From Acidimicrobiia bacterium (GTDB taxonomy: Bacteria > Actinomycetota > Acidimicrobiia > IMCC26256 > JAGNEX01): a stretch of 64,000 nucleotides of DNA. The notes beneath the pieces are model-generated. The model worked only from the letters and a program-made list of their open reading frames with translations, ran no database searches and was not told where the DNA came from. A program made the position numbers and the translations under genes. Positions 41,844 to 47,863 of this stretch are shown piece after piece. The stretch covers positions 477-64,476 of the forward strand of contig JAGNEX010000002.1 of the NCBI GenBank assembly GCA_018003035.1, given 5' to 3'. The first letter of the stretch is position 1. Every line of letters starts with the position of its first letter.

Positions 41844-42368
41844 GTGGCCGATCAGGACGATCAATCCATGCCTGATCCCGCCGACAGAGTCGAACTACTT
41901 GAGGTCGCTGTAGTCGGTAAGCCTCACGGGCTGCGCGGCGAGGTGTACGTGCGGCCGATTTCTAATGTGGCGGAACGGTTCACCCCCGGGTCGGTCTTTG
42001 AGACGACCCAGGGTGAGCTAGAGATTGCCACGGTCCGGACCCACGGTGACCGGATGATGGTCCGCTTCCTCGGGTCCGAGAACCGCACTGACGCTGAAGC
42101 GCTCCGCGGGACCGTTCTGAAGGCGCTCGCACTTCCAGATCAGGACCCCGACGACCTGTGGATACACCAGTTGATCGGAGCGACGGTTGTCGATGCGGCT
42201 GGCGTAGCCCGGGGCAAGATCCGGTCGGTCATCGAAAATCCAGCGCACGACATTCTTGAGCTCCAGGACCGGACGCTGGTCCCGACCGTGTTCATTACCT
42301 CGGTTGATCCGGCGGCCGGGGTGGTCCACGTCGAGGTGCCAGATGGCATCTTCGAGGAAGAGGCGTGA
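41844..42368 (+). CDS. rimM: ribosome maturation factor RimM
   Basis: GKPHGLRGEVYV motif and a PRC-barrel C-terminal half. GTG start. Confidence 0.9.
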   Translation: MADQDDQSMPDPADRVELLEVAVVGKPHGLRGEVYVRPISNVAERFTPGSVFETTQGELEIATVRTHGDRMMVRFLGSENRTDAEALRGTVLKALALPDQDPDDLWIHQLIGATVVDAAGVARGKIRSVIENPAHDILELQDRTLVPTVFITSVDPAAGVVHVEVPDGIFEEEA

Positions 42369-43126
42369 GCGAAACCGACTCCCGAGACCCGACCGCTGGG
42401 CTCCGTGTCGACGTTTTTTCGGTGTTCCCAGACCTGGTCGATCGCTCTCTGAATGATTCAGTCATGGGTCGCGCACGGCTGTCAGGTTTGCTCGATCTTC
42501 GCTTGCACAATCCCCGTGACTGGGCGACAGACCGTCACAAAAGCGTGGATGACACACCGTTTGGTGGCGGGGCTGGCATGGTCATGAGTCCGCAGCCGCT
42601 GTTCGACGCGGTTGAAGCCGTCGATCCCGCTCGGCCCCTCATACTGCTGTCGGCGAGCGGCACCCGTTTCGATCAAAGCATGGCGACCGAGCTTGCCGCG
42701 GCCGGCGGCTTTTCACTGATCTGCGGGCGGTACGAGGGGATCGACCAGCGCGTCGCAGATCATTTATGTGATTTCGAGGTCTCGATCGGCGATTTTGTGT
42801 TGTCGGGCGGCGAACCGGCGGCCGTGGTCATCATTGACGCGACCACGCGCATGATCGATGGGGTGCTGGGAAACGACTCATCGCTAACTGAAGAGTCCCA
42901 CAGCAAACGGCGCCTCGAATACCCGCAATACACCCGTCCAGCCAGTTTTCGCGGCTGGGACGTCCCGTCGGTCCTGTTGTCTGGACACCATGGGAACGTC
43001 CGTCGGTGGCGACTGGCCCGTGCGCTTCAGCGGACGATGCAGCGACGCCCCGACCTGCTGGATGCCGAACCAGCGACCTCTGAAGAGCTGGCGGCCCTCG
43101 GCGAGTTCGGCGACGCCACGGCCTGA
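42365..43126 (+). CDS. trmD: tRNA (guanine37-N1)-methyltransferase
   Basis: VDVFSVFPDL, DDTPFGGGAGMVM, CGRYEGIDQRV, and a 4-nt overlap with rimM. Confidence 0.95.
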   Translation: MSETDSRDPTAGLRVDVFSVFPDLVDRSLNDSVMGRARLSGLLDLRLHNPRDWATDRHKSVDDTPFGGGAGMVMSPQPLFDAVEAVDPARPLILLSASGTRFDQSMATELAAAGGFSLICGRYEGIDQRVADHLCDFEVSIGDFVLSGGEPAAVVIIDATTRMIDGVLGNDSSLTEESHSKRRLEYPQYTRPASFRGWDVPSVLLSGHHGNVRRWRLARALQRTMQRRPDLLDAEPATSEELAALGEFGDATA

Positions 43127-43556
43127 GCTCGAGCACTTTCCCACGTCCAGCTGTGCACCTTTGAGCTGTTGACGAGTGAACCCGGCTGGTCGAACGATGC
43201 GAAGCGGCTCATCGGTTCCCCGTCGCGGATTCTGCGCCTGGTCTTGCTTTTTCCAGCAATCTGGTCGCCGTTCTCTCCCGGTGCCACAGGGTCGAATGGC
43301 TTCCCGTGCCTAGATGCGGCGCGAGCCCGTCCGCAGCAAAGGTCGCGAAGCGTCTGAAGCGATGGAACTTCCTTCCGAACTGTGTGCGCGTTCTCAGCTT
43401 CCTCCCAGATTCGGTCGGTAGAACTCCTGAGACCACAGATCAAGCCGACGGTGTTCTTGCGTTCCATAACTCCTAGGGGCTCACGGCCTCCGGAGTTCGA
43501 AGTCGTTGACGGCGCGTCGGCCAAGTCTGATCCACCTCTGAGATCCAGGAGCAGTC

Positions 43557-44195
43557 ATGTCCCGTTCAGCAATGTTCGCTTTCGACCTCGTCGCCATTTC
43601 GGTCATGGTTTTCGGGCTCTACTTTCCACGTCACAGAAGGAGAGACCTGGTCGTCGCGTACCTCGGCGTGAACGTCGGGGTTTTGGCGGTGGCCGACGCT
43701 CTCAACAGCACCGGAATCGCGAGCGGTCTTGGCCTGGGGCTTTTCGGCGTCCTGTCGATCATTCGCCTTCGGTCAACAGAACTCGATCAAGAAGAAGTTG
43801 CCTACTACTTCGCTGCGTTGGCGCTGGGGCTGCTCGGTGGTCTGACCGTGGCACCAGATTGGCTGAGTCCTGCGCTGATGTTCACGATCGTTGGGGTGCT
43901 CTTCGTCGGTGATCACCCCAAGCTCTACGGGCGTTACCGCACCCAGGTCATGAACCTCGACCAGGCGTTTACCGATGAATTAGCTCTCAAGGACTACTTG
44001 GAAAGGCTGCTCGGCGCCAATGTCCATCGGTTGAAAGTGCGGCGGGTGAACCTCGTCGATCTGACAACGACGGTTGAGGTCCGCTTCGAGGTCGATGAGA
44101 CGAAGCGAACCCAGCGGGGAACCGCGAACGCGGCCGCCGATTACCTCGTCGGCAGGGGCATCGCTACCGGCGGATTCGATGCGCGGGAGGGCTGA
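43557..44195 (+). CDS. DUF4956 domain-containing membrane protein
   Basis: LVAISVMVFGLYFPRHRRRDLVVAYLGVNVGV...GLGLGLFGVLSIIRLRSTELDQEEVAYYFAALALGLLGG matches my recollection of the DUF4956 family. That family typically sits next to VTC-domain genes. Confidence 0.7.
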   Translation: MSRSAMFAFDLVAISVMVFGLYFPRHRRRDLVVAYLGVNVGVLAVADALNSTGIASGLGLGLFGVLSIIRLRSTELDQEEVAYYFAALALGLLGGLTVAPDWLSPALMFTIVGVLFVGDHPKLYGRYRTQVMNLDQAFTDELALKDYLERLLGANVHRLKVRRVNLVDLTTTVEVRFEVDETKRTQRGTANAAADYLVGRGIATGGFDAREG

Positions 44196-44198
44196 AGA

Positions 44199-46679
44199 AT
44201 GAATCCGTCCCTCATCCACACCATAAATACCCTCCCAGCCGCGAACGTCGCAGAACTCAATGACACAGCTCAGCTCCTCACCCGACGGGATCGGAAGTAC
44301 ATCATCGACGCTCCCACTCTCTCCTCGGTGATTCACCGGGTGCGAGAGGAAGAGGCCCAGCTCAAGTGTCTCCAAACGGAATCTGGTCGCTGGGCGAGGT
44401 ACGAGTCCACCTACTACGACACCGGAACGCTCGACACTTATCGGTTGGCCGCTACGCGTCGCCCTAACCGATTCAAAGCCCGGGTTCGCCGCTATGTCGA
44501 CGGGGGATGGTCGACGATCGAGTTCAAAACAAAGAACCGGCGAGGCCAGACGGTGAAGCAGCGGGCAGAGCTCCCTGCCAGCGAACCGGACGAGCTCGCC
44601 GAGACCAATCTCGTTAGACAGCATGCCGTTCGGATCCCGGCCGCGGCTCCGTTTGCTAGTCGCCTCGTCCCAGGTGTTTCGACGCGGTACCGGCGGGCAA
44701 CCCTCCTCCTCCCGAGCTCTTCGAGCCGCGTCACCATCGACGCCGACTACACGGCGTCCGACCGTTTCGGACGGACCACCGGACTTCCCGGCCACTACAT
44801 CGTCGAAACCAAGACGTCGGGAAGGGCATGCGCATTCGACAGGGCGTTTTGGGCGGAAGGCGTACGTCCCGTCAAGTTCTCGAAGTATGCGACGGGCTTA
44901 GCGAAGCTGCGGCCCGACCTCACTGCCAACCGCTGGAGCTCGGTCATCCGCCGCTACTTCGACTCGCCTGTAACCGCCACGGGCAATGTCGCCCCTCCGT
45001 TTCTGGTGGGCAGTGCAGGGACCCATTCCCGCTTGAGCTCCCACCGCCAAGACGCAAATGCATCAGGTCATGTTCCTCTGAGAACTTGTCAAAACCTAGT
45101 GACCACGAGGTTGGCAGGGGCCGACCTGTCGCTAAACCTTCAAAGGAGAAACGTTATGACGTCTACCTATAACCGCCGCCTGTACCAAAAGGGTGCCGCC
45201 ATCATTCTCGGCTGGCTGTTGGTCACGCTCGCAGCGTGCAGTGCCACCCAAGAAACCAATTCGCAGGACGCGGCCGCTCAACAAACCGAGGCGGCCTCGG
45301 CGACGAGCGACTCCGTTGACGGCACCGCGACACAAGACGACAACCCGGGGGTGACACCCGTGTCCTCGGATTCCGGGCAAACCAGCAACAGTGCGTTCGA
45401 CAGTTCCTTCGTTCATGAGCTCACCCTCGCCTTCGATGAAGCGGCATATCAGGCGATGATCGAGGCGTATACGACCAACGGCGACAAAGAATGGATCGAA
45501 GCGACCGTTACGATCGACGGGACTGCGTACAACGACGTTGGGCTTCGCTTAAAGGGCAACTCGTCGCTACGTGGACTCGCTGACGGAGGGGGTCCCGGTG
45601 GCGACCTGAGCTCGGAAAATCCAGAAACACTTCCGTGGCTCATCAAACTGGACAAGTACGTAGACGACCAAGACCACCTGGGTGTGACCGACTTCGTGGT
45701 CCGCTCGTCGTCGACCGGGACCAGCCTGAACGAGGCGGTTGCGCTCGAGTTGTTGGCTCAGGCCGGGCTGGCCACGCAACAGGCGATGTCCGTTCGCTTC
45801 AGCGTCAACGGGAGCGCGGAAGTGCTTCGGTTGGTAATCGAGAATCCAGACGATGAGTGGATGAGCACGAACTTTGACGCTTCCGGCGCGCTGTACAAAG
45901 CAGAGAGCACAGGCGACTACAGCTATCGGGGGGACAATCCCGAGGAATACGACGAGGTGTTCGACCAGGAAGCGGGCGAAGAGAACGCCGACCTCACCCC
46001 TCTGATCGAGTTTCTCGACTTCATCAACAACGCCGACGACGAAACCTTCGCGGCGGAGCTCGACCAATGGCTCGACGTCGATGAGTTCGCGACCTATCTA
46101 GCCATGGAAGAGATCGTTGAGAACTTCGACGACATCGACGGCCCGGGGAACAACTCATACCTGTACTACGACTCCAATACTGAGCAATTCACCGTCGTAG
46201 CGTGGGACCACAACTTGGCGTTCGGAGTGGGTCCAGGTGGAGCGGGTGGCAATGCCGGACCTCGCGCGCTAGTCGACGCTGAGGGGCAAACCACACCCGA
46301 CGGAGGTGAAGCTCCTGCGCCCGGCGAGGTACCCGATGGCTCGGGCTTCCAGCCGCCCGCCGGCTTTGATCAAAGCACCCGGCCGGAAGGCGCTCCTCAG
46401 CCGCCAGACGGGTTCGTTCCCGGCGCCGCCGGCAACGCGAATCCCGCCGGACGGGGCGGGCCGGGGGGACGCTCAAACGTTCTATCGGAACGCTTCTTAG
46501 CCAGTGAAGAGTTCTTAGCGCTTTACAACGCGAAGTTGGAGGCACTTACAGCCGACCTGATCGACACCGGTACTGTGGGTGAAGTTGCCCAGGCGTGGGC
46601 TGCGGTGATCGAGCGTGATGCGAGTGACCTGGTGTCCTCAGAAACGATCCAGTCCGAGGTGTCACAGATCGTTTCCTGA
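44199..46679 (+). CDS. VTC (polyphosphate-polymerase/CYTH-like tunnel) domain joined in frame to a CotH-kinase-family module
   Basis: Residues 1 to about 262 are VTC-like (RRDRKYII, YESTYYDT, RFKARVRRY, IEFKTKNRRG, YIVETKTSG, FSKYATGLA). From ATG 45156, preceded by aaaggaga, there is a lipoprotein-type signal (ILGWLLVTLAAC-S). A CotH-like region follows (ATVTIDGTAYNDVGLRLKGNSS, LVIENPDDEWM, YLAMEEIVENFDDIDGPGNNSYLYYD, WDHNLAFG). No stop codon separates the two parts, so the product is either a fusion or CotH is made independently from 45156. Confidence 0.75.
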   Translation: MNPSLIHTINTLPAANVAELNDTAQLLTRRDRKYIIDAPTLSSVIHRVREEEAQLKCLQTESGRWARYESTYYDTGTLDTYRLAATRRPNRFKARVRRYVDGGWSTIEFKTKNRRGQTVKQRAELPASEPDELAETNLVRQHAVRIPAAAPFASRLVPGVSTRYRRATLLLPSSSSRVTIDADYTASDRFGRTTGLPGHYIVETKTSGRACAFDRAFWAEGVRPVKFSKYATGLAKLRPDLTANRWSSVIRRYFDSPVTATGNVAPPFLVGSAGTHSRLSSHRQDANASGHVPLRTCQNLVTTRLAGADLSLNLQRRNVMTSTYNRRLYQKGAAIILGWLLVTLAACSATQETNSQDAAAQQTEAASATSDSVDGTATQDDNPGVTPVSSDSGQTSNSAFDSSFVHELTLAFDEAAYQAMIEAYTTNGDKEWIEATVTIDGTAYNDVGLRLKGNSSLRGLADGGGPGGDLSSENPETLPWLIKLDKYVDDQDHLGVTDFVVRSSSTGTSLNEAVALELLAQAGLATQQAMSVRFSVNGSAEVLRLVIENPDDEWMSTNFDASGALYKAESTGDYSYRGDNPEEYDEVFDQEAGEENADLTPLIEFLDFINNADDETFAAELDQWLDVDEFATYLAMEEIVENFDDIDGPGNNSYLYYDSNTEQFTVVAWDHNLAFGVGPGGAGGNAGPRALVDAEGQTTPDGGEAPAPGEVPDGSGFQPPAGFDQSTRPEGAPQPPDGFVPGAAGNANPAGRGGPGGRSNVLSERFLASEEFLALYNAKLEALTADLIDTGTVGEVAQAWAAVIERDASDLVSSETIQSEVSQIVS

Positions 46680-46839
46680 TCACACCCGCCTGAACATGTG
46701 CGAACCCGGAGCCGTGGCATAGACTGCCGAGCTTGTGCCTGGGGCAGGACTCTCAGCACCCCAGAGTGGACACTGCGGCATCGGGTCGCACACGGTTTGC
46801 GTCACCGCTGGACATGGGCGCATCGAGGAGCCAGTCGCC

Positions 46840-47184
46840 ATGAAGACAACAGACATGATCGACAAGGGTCAGCAGCGCGAAGACATTCCTGCCTTCGGCG
46901 CTGGAGACAAGCTCAAGGTGCACGTCAAGATTGTCGAAGGTACCCGTGAGCGTGTGCAGGTGTTCGAAGGGTACGTCATCGCCCGCCAAGGTGGTGGCAC
47001 ACGCGAGACCTTTACTGTCCGCAAGATCAGCTTTGGCGTCGGCGTAGAGCGCATCTTCCCGCTCCACTCTCCGACCATCGAGAAGATTGAGGTCGTCGCT
47101 CGTGGCGATGTACGTCGAGCGAAGCTCACATACCTCCGTGACCGGGTCGGCAAGGCTGCCCGAGTCCGGGAAAAGCGCTACTGA
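46840..47184 (+). CDS. rplS: 50S ribosomal protein L19
   Basis: ATG 46840 follows gaggag. [36 protein letters not shown]...[18 protein letters not shown] is canonical L19. Confidence 0.95.
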
Positions 47185-47204
47185 GTCGTCGCTTCTCGGA
47201 TGGT

Positions 47205-47226
47205 CGCCGGTCCTTTTGGACCGGCG
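47205..47226 (+). promoter_or_regulatory. stem-loop between rplS and lepB
   Basis: 9-bp stem cgccggtcc / ggaccggcg with a TTTT loop, 21 nt after the rplS stop and with no U-tract. The only plausible lepB start codon (TTG 47216) lies in the loop/3' arm. Confidence 0.4.
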
Positions 47227-47863
47227 CGGTTCCAGCGCCGCGCTCGATGTTGGCGACAAGCCTCGAGCGCTTTGGAAAGAGATCGCAGTACTGCTGGTCG
47301 TGGCGGTCCTGCTTGCTCTGTTAGTTCGGGCGCTCCTCTTTGAGGTGTTCTTCATCCCGTCAGAATCGATGGAAGCGACGCTCGCTCCTGGTGAACGCGT
47401 GGCCGTTTCCTCCTTCCCTCTGGGCAGAGACGAGGTGCCCAATCGAGGCGACGTCATCGTCTTCCAGCCCACTGAGGAGCAGCTTGGTGGGCGGACCGTC
47501 CCTGATGACGACGTCGCTGCCTGGCTGAAACCTGTGCACGCGATCTTCCAGGCCGTTCATCTAATACCCCCTTCGACCGAGGACTACATCAAGCGAGTAG
47601 TTGGGCTCCCCGGCGAACGGGTTGAGGGTCGTGACGGTTCGGTCTTCATCGACGGAAAGCGTCTGATCGAGCCCTACCTCGACGAAGGGGTGGTTATCGA
47701 CGATTTCGCTCCTGTGACCGTTCCGGACGGCACGGTATGGGTGATGGGCGACAACAGAACTAACTCCCGTGACAGTCGGTTTATCGGGCCGGTTTCGCTC
47801 GACCAGATCGAAGGTCGCGCCGTGATGCGGGTGTGGCCTTTAAGTCGCTTAAGTCGTCTCTAG
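47216..47863 (+). CDS. lepB: signal peptidase I
   Basis: PSESMEATL (catalytic Ser), GDVIVFQP, YIKRVVGLPGE (catalytic Lys region) and VMGDNRTNSRDSR. The start is uncertain: TTG 47216 is proposed, and the track ORF from 47087 overlaps rplS by 98 nt. Confidence 0.88.
   Translation: MDRRGSSAALDVGDKPRALWKEIAVLLVVAVLLALLVRALLFEVFFIPSESMEATLAPGERVAVSSFPLGRDEVPNRGDVIVFQPTEEQLGGRTVPDDDVAAWLKPVHAIFQAVHLIPPSTEDYIKRVVGLPGERVEGRDGSVFIDGKRLIEPYLDEGVVIDDFAPVTVPDGTVWVMGDNRTNSRDSRFIGPVSLDQIEGRAVMRVWPLSRLSRL

Follow-up and report, generated by a model that had tools for sequence, protein, structure and literature searches.

In eukaryotes, the tunnel domain of the VTC complex feeds polyphosphate into a membrane channel. 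Internal in-frame initiation, which yields two isoforms from one gene, is familiar from infB, cheA and clpB. The trio of DUF4956, VTC and CotH genes is widespread in Actinobacteria, Firmicutes and others, and is known beside biofilm polysaccharide operons. cotH, a polyphosphate polymerase gene and a DUF4956 gene form an accessory set beside Gram-positive pel operons (Whitfield et al., 10.1101/768473), and in C. perfringens NELoc-2 only a short distance separates the genes for VTC and CotH, with intervening genes annotated as ‘tubulin/FtsZ, GTPase’ (PMC2879425). We analysed a stretch of 64,000 nucleotides from an Acidimicrobiia bacterium (assembly GCA_018003035.1, contig JAGNEX010000002.1, positions 477 to 64,476 of the forward strand; hereafter the window, whose own numbering is used throughout) in which VTC and CotH modules are joined in a single open reading frame (ORF) of 826 codons for amino acids. 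An earlier note on this DNA had offered three explanations for the shared frame: a single membrane-spanning fusion, two products from one frame, or a VTC stop codon that was either recently lost or hidden by an assembly error. We consider it rather probable that the ORF is a real, young and lineage-specific fusion that joins, in frame, the second gene of a conserved operon to the third and is likely to give two products.

One reading frame encodes a VTC domain and a CotH kinase domain

The ORF runs from 44199 to 46679 on the plus strand in the order VTC, linker, signal peptide/transmembrane (TM) segment and CotH, and its sole stop codon is the TGA at 46677–46679. Its start signal (44186–44201, plus strand) consists of GGAGG at 44186–44190, a spacer of 8 nt and the ATG at 44199–44201. 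Pfam places VTC at residues 29–237 and CotH at residues 467–807 of the 826-residue product, so both the reading of the ORF and the Pfam matches bear out the observation that started this work, namely that the two modules share one stop-free frame.

The VTC or triphosphate-tunnel domain (44283–44963, plus strand), which is predicted to be cytoplasmic, matches nearly the full length of profile PF09359 with 71.1 bits (cut-off 23). The predicted local distance difference test score (pLDDT) of the AlphaFold model is mostly 72–93 per 10-residue block over residues 1–240, with dips at 21–30 and 81–90. By sequence, the VTC part matched only antibody chains in the PDB, at chance level, and we therefore used a fold search. 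The best PDB match in Foldseek was the polyphosphate polymerase tunnel of yeast Vtc4 (3G3R, E = 3.8e-10), and the top matches 3G3R, 9UMG and 8I6V (Vtc4; E from 4e-10 to 1e-9) outrank other triphosphate tunnel metalloenzymes. The AlphaFold model and the Foldseek matches agree on a closed β-barrel tunnel fold like that of the Vtc4 catalytic domain. The charged strand residues R87, R88, R91, K93, R95, R97, E108, K110, E203 and K205 are invariant among five fused homologues. The end of the domain lies somewhat upstream of the position near 44985 proposed in the earlier note: conserved sequence stops at W246 (about 44936), and the confident fold at about residue 255 (about 44963).

The extracytoplasmic part (45240–46676, plus strand) consists of a low-complexity tether, which extends from residue 348 to around residue 405, and of the CotH kinase domain assigned by Pfam. 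The latter scores 120 bits against PF08757 (cut-off 23.8) and matches CotH of B. cereus (PDB 5JD9) with E = 1.8e-9. Its motif residues K452, N642, D644, W669–D670 and N672 are intact, and the motif is invariant in 120 of 120 homologues. In the alignment with B. cereus CotH, D644 of NFD falls on the NFD motif there and D670 of WD on WDYD; the two aspartates are 23 residues apart in the B. cereus chain and 26 in the window protein, which has a 3-residue insert. The catalytic residues of B. subtilis CotH are D228 and D251 (PMC7821199), and we infer from alignment and spacing that D644 and D670 are their counterparts. Both enzyme halves look intact. A Pro/Gly-rich insert within CotH (residues ~672–757, 46210–46470) has a GC content of up to 0.75 and very low model confidence, and differs in length among homologues.

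CotH domains also occur in other contexts. Protein P0207 (775 aa) consists of a glycosyltransferase family 2 domain, a GtrA membrane domain and CotH, a fusion which hints that such CotH proteins act on glycans or lipid-linked sugars, and P0146 (687 aa) combines a lamin-tail domain with CotH. The stand-alone CotH nearest to that of the window in the CotH tree (P0008; locus L037, 259–3530) is encoded directly 3′ of a PhoD-type phosphatase gene, and the 4.3-kb L037 contig holds no VTC or DUF4956 gene.

The long frame recurs in independent data. The window protein (P0124) is 100% identical to MBP7928552.1, from a 340-kb contig of an Acidimicrobiia bacterium metagenome-assembled genome (MAG). Its 90% cluster contains ten 826-residue variants that differ from P0001 by at most 8 amino acids and are ≥99% identical. 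More than 25 contigs carry these variants, and the assemblies concerned (NCBI MAGs, JGI, ENA, Logan) are independent in both sequencing run and assembler. The DNA of six other contigs differs by point substitutions only, with no indel in the linker and no length variation, and the stop-less allele is fixed in every sampled variant of the lineage. A sequencing or assembly artefact, in which a stop codon was missed or an indel arose in the linker, might be suspected on two grounds, the origin of the window from a MAG and the existence of a disrupted copy of a related fused gene in one MAG (L010, compared with L014). However, the same ORF on more than 25 independent contigs that show point differences only makes such an artefact extremely improbable. 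Of the two halves of the third explanation, the assembly error can thus be dropped, whereas the lost stop codon stands as the presumed evolutionary origin of the frame. The disrupted copy itself (GCA_041394445.1; L010, 6001–8376) encodes 495 residues plus fragments, where the related Microthrixaceae MAG L014 (5001–7373) has an intact gene for 790 residues; it is a pseudogene unless the local assembly is in error. Two database entries of 507 residues were rejected as evidence of a separate cotH gene. The contig of P0132 (L033) begins 39 nt upstream of the ATG, so this entry is truncated by the contig end, and that of P0131, at 1685 nt, barely exceeds the 1524-nt gene, which makes truncation almost certain there too.

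The linker and the internal start signal

The linker (residues 256–319, ~64 residues; 44964–45155, plus strand) is predicted to be disordered, and residues 257–328 of the AlphaFold model have a pLDDT of ~26 and no secondary structure. Its codon usage is non-coding-like. With a codon table built from 18 long genes of the window, the 48 codons of the linker core (45012–45155) scored −0.40 bits per codon, which is below all 1535 in-frame control windows of 48 codons (0.33 ± 0.15) and matches out-of-frame sequence (−0.51 ± 0.23). No other stretch of the ORF scores as low as the linker, and positive values begin directly after the ATG at 45156. The lower GC content ascribed to the linker was also confirmed, with a dip to 0.52–0.58 at ~44980–45180 compared with 0.60–0.68 on the flanks. 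We suggest that the linker is probably the former C-terminal tail of VTC followed by the former intergenic spacer. When it was compared by blastn and tblastx with all fetched loci, chance-level matches only were obtained, and the lost stop codon was not locatable.

Frame 0 of the linker contains no stop codon, frame +1 contains seven and frame +2 is open. Composition alone gives P ~0.15 that the 48 linker codons stay free of stops, so the open frame is unremarkable and is not evidence of selection. Among the available strains, the linker has only five substitutions, three synonymous and two non-synonymous. The predicted RNA fold of 44990–45200 is no more stable than shuffled sequences (z = −0.75), Rfam gave no match in 42500–47500 at E ≤ 0.1, and a promoter and terminator scan found no promoter-like site and two terminator-like matches, a number below that in shuffled sequences and with both on the minus strand. 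On the strength of the fold, Rfam and terminator results, there is no evidence of a regulatory RNA, terminator or recoding signal in the linker. This bears on the idea that ribosomes change to frame +1 in the linker and are halted by TGA 45079 or by TAG/TGA 45097–45102, which would release a separate VTC protein. The seven stops of frame +1, including the tandem TAG–TGA, are compatible with it. But a stop-rich alternative frame is normal and neither a slippery site nor a stimulatory structure is evident, and we give recoding hardly any credence. Frame-0 translation of the linker would be diagnosed by the tryptic peptides QDANASGHVPLR, TCQNLVTTR and LAGADLSLNLQR, as derived from the sequence.

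The linker ends in AAAGGAGAAACGTTATG, with the Shine–Dalgarno (SD) core AAGGAG at 45143–45148, which is followed after 7 nt by the ATG at 45156–45158 (Met320). We regard this region (45143–45158, plus strand) as the retained initiation region of cotH inside the ORF. The ATG opens MTSTYNRRLYQKGAAIILGWLLVTLAAC, a lipoprotein signal peptide (45156–45239, plus strand) composed of the n-region MTSTYNRRLYQKG (with NRRLYQK), the h-region AAIILGWLLVTLAA and the lipobox L-A-A-C, whose cysteine is Cys347 (45237–45239). The ribosome-binding site, ATG and lipobox that the earlier note had recognized in front of CotH are thus all present. The lipobox fits the pattern [LVI][ASTVI][GAS]C. Its cysteine is residue 28 of the 507-residue product that would start at ATG 45156, inside the roughly 35 N-terminal residues expected of a lipoprotein precursor, and residue 347 of the 826-residue product, far beyond them. 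It is invariant in alignment A1, and a regular expression finds a lipobox-like motif in 111 of 118 homologues, two of the seven misses being lipoboxes by eye.

Counting both strands, the window has 14 copies of the arrangement (AGGAG or GGAGG)N5-9ATG, and nine of them are then open for at least 100 codons. In eight of these nine the frame is open for no more than 98 codons upstream, which gives them the look of gene starts, and the three compared with annotation (DUF4956, VTC and rplS) coincide with called genes. The remaining copy, at ATG 45156, is the only one deep within an ORF in the window, 320 codons in. Because the window has few such motifs, most of them at the starts of ORFs, we do not attribute the internal start signal to chance. 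Among the six other contigs, 45135–45160 is without polymorphism, while the base just before it, 45134, is substituted.

A Kyte–Doolittle plot of the 826-residue protein (19-residue window) has its only peak above 1.6 at the signal peptide, and the AlphaFold model has a helix at residues 329–344; the single hydrophobic segment lies within residues 310–350, the stretch for which the earlier note had suggested a TM prediction. The segment is flanked by positive residues on its N-terminal side and acidic residues on its C-terminal side. A single segment with such flanks fits an N-in/C-out orientation, in which the signal peptide would act as the one TM segment of the fusion. The n-region of the CotH signal peptide, with Y-N-R-R-L-Y in the window (residues 325–330; 45171–45188) and Y-R-R-L-I-V at the CotH N-terminus of locus L039, has in either case the look of a twin-arginine (Tat) motif. 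If the kinase were exported folded by the Tat route, that would be noteworthy.

It could be argued that only the 826-residue protein matters and that the internal SD and ATG are a silent relic within a translated ORF. The sequence gives no proof of initiation at 45156, and the Microthrixaceae-type fusions described below persist without an internal start. However, the SD is near-perfect and optimally spaced, the motif otherwise stands mostly at ORF starts in the window, and it has remained invariant among strains although a substitution lies one base upstream. Strong in-frame SD and ATG combinations inside bacterial ORFs are, moreover, normally used, as in infB, cheA and clpB, which counts against a relic. 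We consider an obligate single fusion quite unlikely, and we favour a fusion that also allows a start at ATG 45156.

Relatives with separate genes and other VTC fusions

We scanned GTDB species genomes with a VTC alignment and obtained 21 loci. DUF4956 is encoded immediately upstream of VTC in 21 of 21, and in these loci it is the invariable membrane partner of bacterial VTC. Stand-alone VTC proteins end 3–75 residues past the conserved NRW..HF motif, with tails that are mutually unrelated. CotH is a separate gene 3′ of VTC in three loci, L013 (Ilumatobacteraceae), L038 and L039, which have the order DUF4956, VTC, CotH on one strand in common with the window. Elsewhere CotH is divergent and upstream (L022, L027 and L028) or non-adjacent. 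The earlier note had raised the question of whether a stop codon separates VTC from CotH in orthologous loci, and it does so in all three: L013 has a TGA, 20 nt that include GAGAGGA and an ATG, L038 has a gap of 16 nt, and in L039 the two genes overlap in ATGA, with GGAGG in front. All three cotH genes begin with an SD and ATG and reach their lipobox cysteine after 22–24 residues, compared with 27 from the internal start of the window. The data point to an ancestral state in which DUF4956 and VTC, closed by its own stop codon, were followed by an SD, an ATG and a CotH lipoprotein. Of the three explanations, we prefer that of two probable products from one frame for the window, whose internal SD and ATG look just like the cotH starts of the relatives.

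A second group of fused proteins, of the Microthrixaceae type (698–790 residues), has VTC joined to CotH by a basic linker and a hydrophobic segment that contains G-C-[SG]. Its members include P0002–P0005, L014–L016 and MCO5318941.1 (777 aa), and the loci of the clade are L002–L009 and L014–L016. The linkers range from ~14 to 70 residues and are always in frame. No ATG precedes the membrane segment in these fusions, L004 lacks any ATG, GTG or TTG there, and no convincing SD was found, with a weak SD-like core in L002 only. They are obligate fusions that have been kept through divergence. The inside–membrane–outside fusion of the first explanation consequently finds support as an architecture, in proteins that have no usable internal start. 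Like the window protein, they have a disordered basic linker, a segment with a lipobox cysteine, CotH and a DUF4956 gene upstream (overlapping by 4 nt). They differ in the missing internal ATG and SD, in linkers that are shorter or compositionally ordinary, in their genomic context and in forming a clade of their own.

In a neighbour-joining tree of VTC plus DUF4956 (200 bootstraps, short alignments), the Microthrixaceae-type clade was recovered in 194 of 200 replicates, whereas all fused genes including the window were monophyletic in only 12 of 200. The window groups instead with the unfused L039, L011 and L012, and in the CotH tree unfused sequences separate it from the Microthrixaceae-type clade. 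A single ancestral fusion shared with Microthrixaceae is disfavoured by the 12 of 200 bootstraps, by the CotH tree and by the unrelated linkers. It is likely from these sequence comparisons that the two fusions arose independently and that the Microthrixaceae type is the older. In an exhaustive search of 1.84 billion representatives, the VTC–CotH proteins among the best 150 matches were the window cluster and two representatives of the Microthrixaceae type, P0005 and the truncated P0066, only. A further protein from this search, P0283 (817 aa), has VTC at residues 31–231, a short linker, a lipobox segment (…AALGGCG…) and a Cthe_2159 carbohydrate-binding β-helix. Counting the window, the Microthrixaceae type and P0283, VTC has been joined to a downstream lipoprotein at least three times.

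These fusions are relevant to the proposal that the one in the window is a neutral or slightly harmful accident, with functional CotH made from the internal start only and a read-through product that is misfolded, degraded or irrelevant. Such an accident would account for the non-coding-like codon usage of the linker; an open in-frame read-through is not especially improbable by chance, and the lineage is known from near-identical strains only. However, another clade has long kept such a fusion through frame-preserving indels in the linker, VTC has also become fused to a different lipoprotein in P0283, and the allele of the window is present in every variant from many samples. We think an accident of this kind unlikely, though it has to be taken seriously. 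Because fusions have been kept or have arisen elsewhere, the read-through product would appear to be at least tolerated and topologically sensible.

A two-product model and comparison with known systems

We propose that the VTC stop codon was lost in an operon with separate VTC and cotH genes. Such a stop-loss fusion is mutationally easy because the spacers are short. Ribosomes that start at ATG 44199 would then read the old VTC tail and the spacer, pass through the intact ribosome-binding site and ATG of cotH and continue into the CotH lipoprotein precursor, whose former signal peptide would become a type II anchor (N-in, C-out). Since VTC is cytoplasmic, CotH lies outside and a signal peptide can anchor, the topology would stay correct and the fusion would be tolerated. 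The first product would be the membrane-spanning VTC–CotH protein of 826 residues and the second a CotH prelipoprotein of 507 residues from ATG 45156. The event appears to be recent, given the non-coding-like codon usage of the linker and a start signal that is still intact, and two products are what we expect of such a fusion. Lgt and LspA may also lipidate the 826-residue protein and cut it at Cys347, in which case VTC would stay tethered to the membrane and CotH would become an ordinary lipidated protein. The lipobox cysteine is kept in all fused lineages, a hint that lipidation, and possibly LspA cleavage, still acts on the fusion.

Several points weigh against a fusion with two useful products. 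With P ~0.15 for an open linker, and with frame +2 open as well, the fusion could be a tolerated accident without benefit. Selection on the linker (as dN/dS, the ratio of non-synonymous to synonymous substitution rates) is unmeasurable, because the strains are ≥99% identical and offer only five changes. A literature search on the processing of internal lipoboxes found no precedent for a lipobox ~347 residues into a protein. That the fusion arose independently of the Microthrixaceae type is likely rather than certain, since the trees were built by neighbour joining from short alignments. Finally, we infer dual initiation, membrane insertion and Lsp cleavage, as well as any biochemical role, from sequence features.

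The first gene of the operon (43557–44195, plus strand) encodes a DUF4956 membrane protein of 212 residues (PF16316, E = 1.7e-54) with several hydrophobic segments. It begins with an AGGAG-N5-ATG start, and its TGA (44193–44195) lies 3 nt upstream of the VTC ATG. The immediate neighbours of the operon are trmD (42365–43126) and rplS (46840–47184), names that derive in part from Pfam labels, and NCBIfam has no model for either protein of the operon. The DUF4956–VTC–CotH operon thereby splits the usually contiguous rpsP–rimM–trmD–rplS cluster. The 430 nt between trmD and the DUF4956 gene (43127–43556) are without a convincing gene. Just 3′ of the ORF stop, at 46701–46719, strain L032 shows seven differences from the window in 19 nt, compared with only 18 over the whole 2.5-kb ORF, and this patch upstream of rplS is locally hypervariable.

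What the three proteins might do together can be framed only speculatively, by analogy with the eukaryotic VTC complex. The module, with DUF4956 as membrane partner, would supply the extracytoplasmic CotH kinase with a phosphate polymer or phosphoryl donor formed at the membrane, and the fusion would tether VTC and CotH and co-localize them. A more elaborate version is a trans-membrane phosphorylation machine in which VTC polymerizes phosphate at the cytoplasmic face, DUF4956 passes the polymer or another phosphoryl donor across the membrane and the lipid-anchored CotH uses it outside. Fusions processed by Lgt and LspA at the lipobox would then provide a tail-anchored cytoplasmic enzyme and a lipoprotein kinase in fixed 1:1 proximity. 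We hold this version to be improbable; if true, the donor would serve CotH outside the cell, where ATP is scarce. The fusion of neighbouring genes is classic ‘Rosetta stone’ evidence of joint action, and the recurrent fusion of VTC via the signal peptide of a partner argues that VTC acts at the membrane, opposite an outside partner. This provides a testable model in which a phosphate donor is made inside the cell and used outside. The allele of the window offers a snapshot from what appears to be soon after fusion, with the old start signal kept and a linker that still looks non-coding. We see its value as moderate: it adds comparative evidence, from sequence, that VTC and CotH act together across the membrane, and it overturns nothing.

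The claim that this would be a new architecture stands in part. Our literature searches found nothing on the fusion or on the use of polyphosphate by CotH; however, the proteins themselves are deposited (MBP7928552.1, MCO5318941.1 and others), annotated in databases as ‘CotH kinase family protein’, and the linkage of the trio is published. As in the pel-linked set of CotH, VTC and DUF4956, the three families are contiguous and on one strand in the window. Here, by contrast, VTC and CotH are in one ORF, the neighbours are trmD and rplS, and the host belongs to the Acidimicrobiia. No pel genes are immediate neighbours, the rest of the window not having been screened for pel.

Compared with the Bacillus spore-coat kinase CotH (5JD9), the CotH part has the same fold-family signature and both Asp motifs (NFD and WD), but it is a lipoprotein of a non-sporulating actinobacterium and has the long Pro/Gly-rich insert. 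With the eukaryotic VTC complex (3G3R, 7YTJ, 8I6V) the window protein shares the catalytic fold and, if our topology is correct, a tunnel enzyme tethered at the cytoplasmic face of the membrane. It lacks the SPX domain and the three-helix VTC/DUF202 membrane domain, as judged by Pfam and by its single hydrophobic segment. Its membrane segment would instead be a borrowed lipoprotein signal peptide, and the candidate membrane partner is the separate DUF4956 protein. Like infB, cheA and clpB, the ORF contains a strong SD and ATG within a longer frame and in the same phase. It differs from them in that the two products would have different topologies, a membrane-spanning fusion and a secreted lipoprotein, and in that the internal site would be the ancestral start of a formerly separate gene. 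The fusion with its retained internal start is therefore a variation on a published gene module and not a new kind of system.

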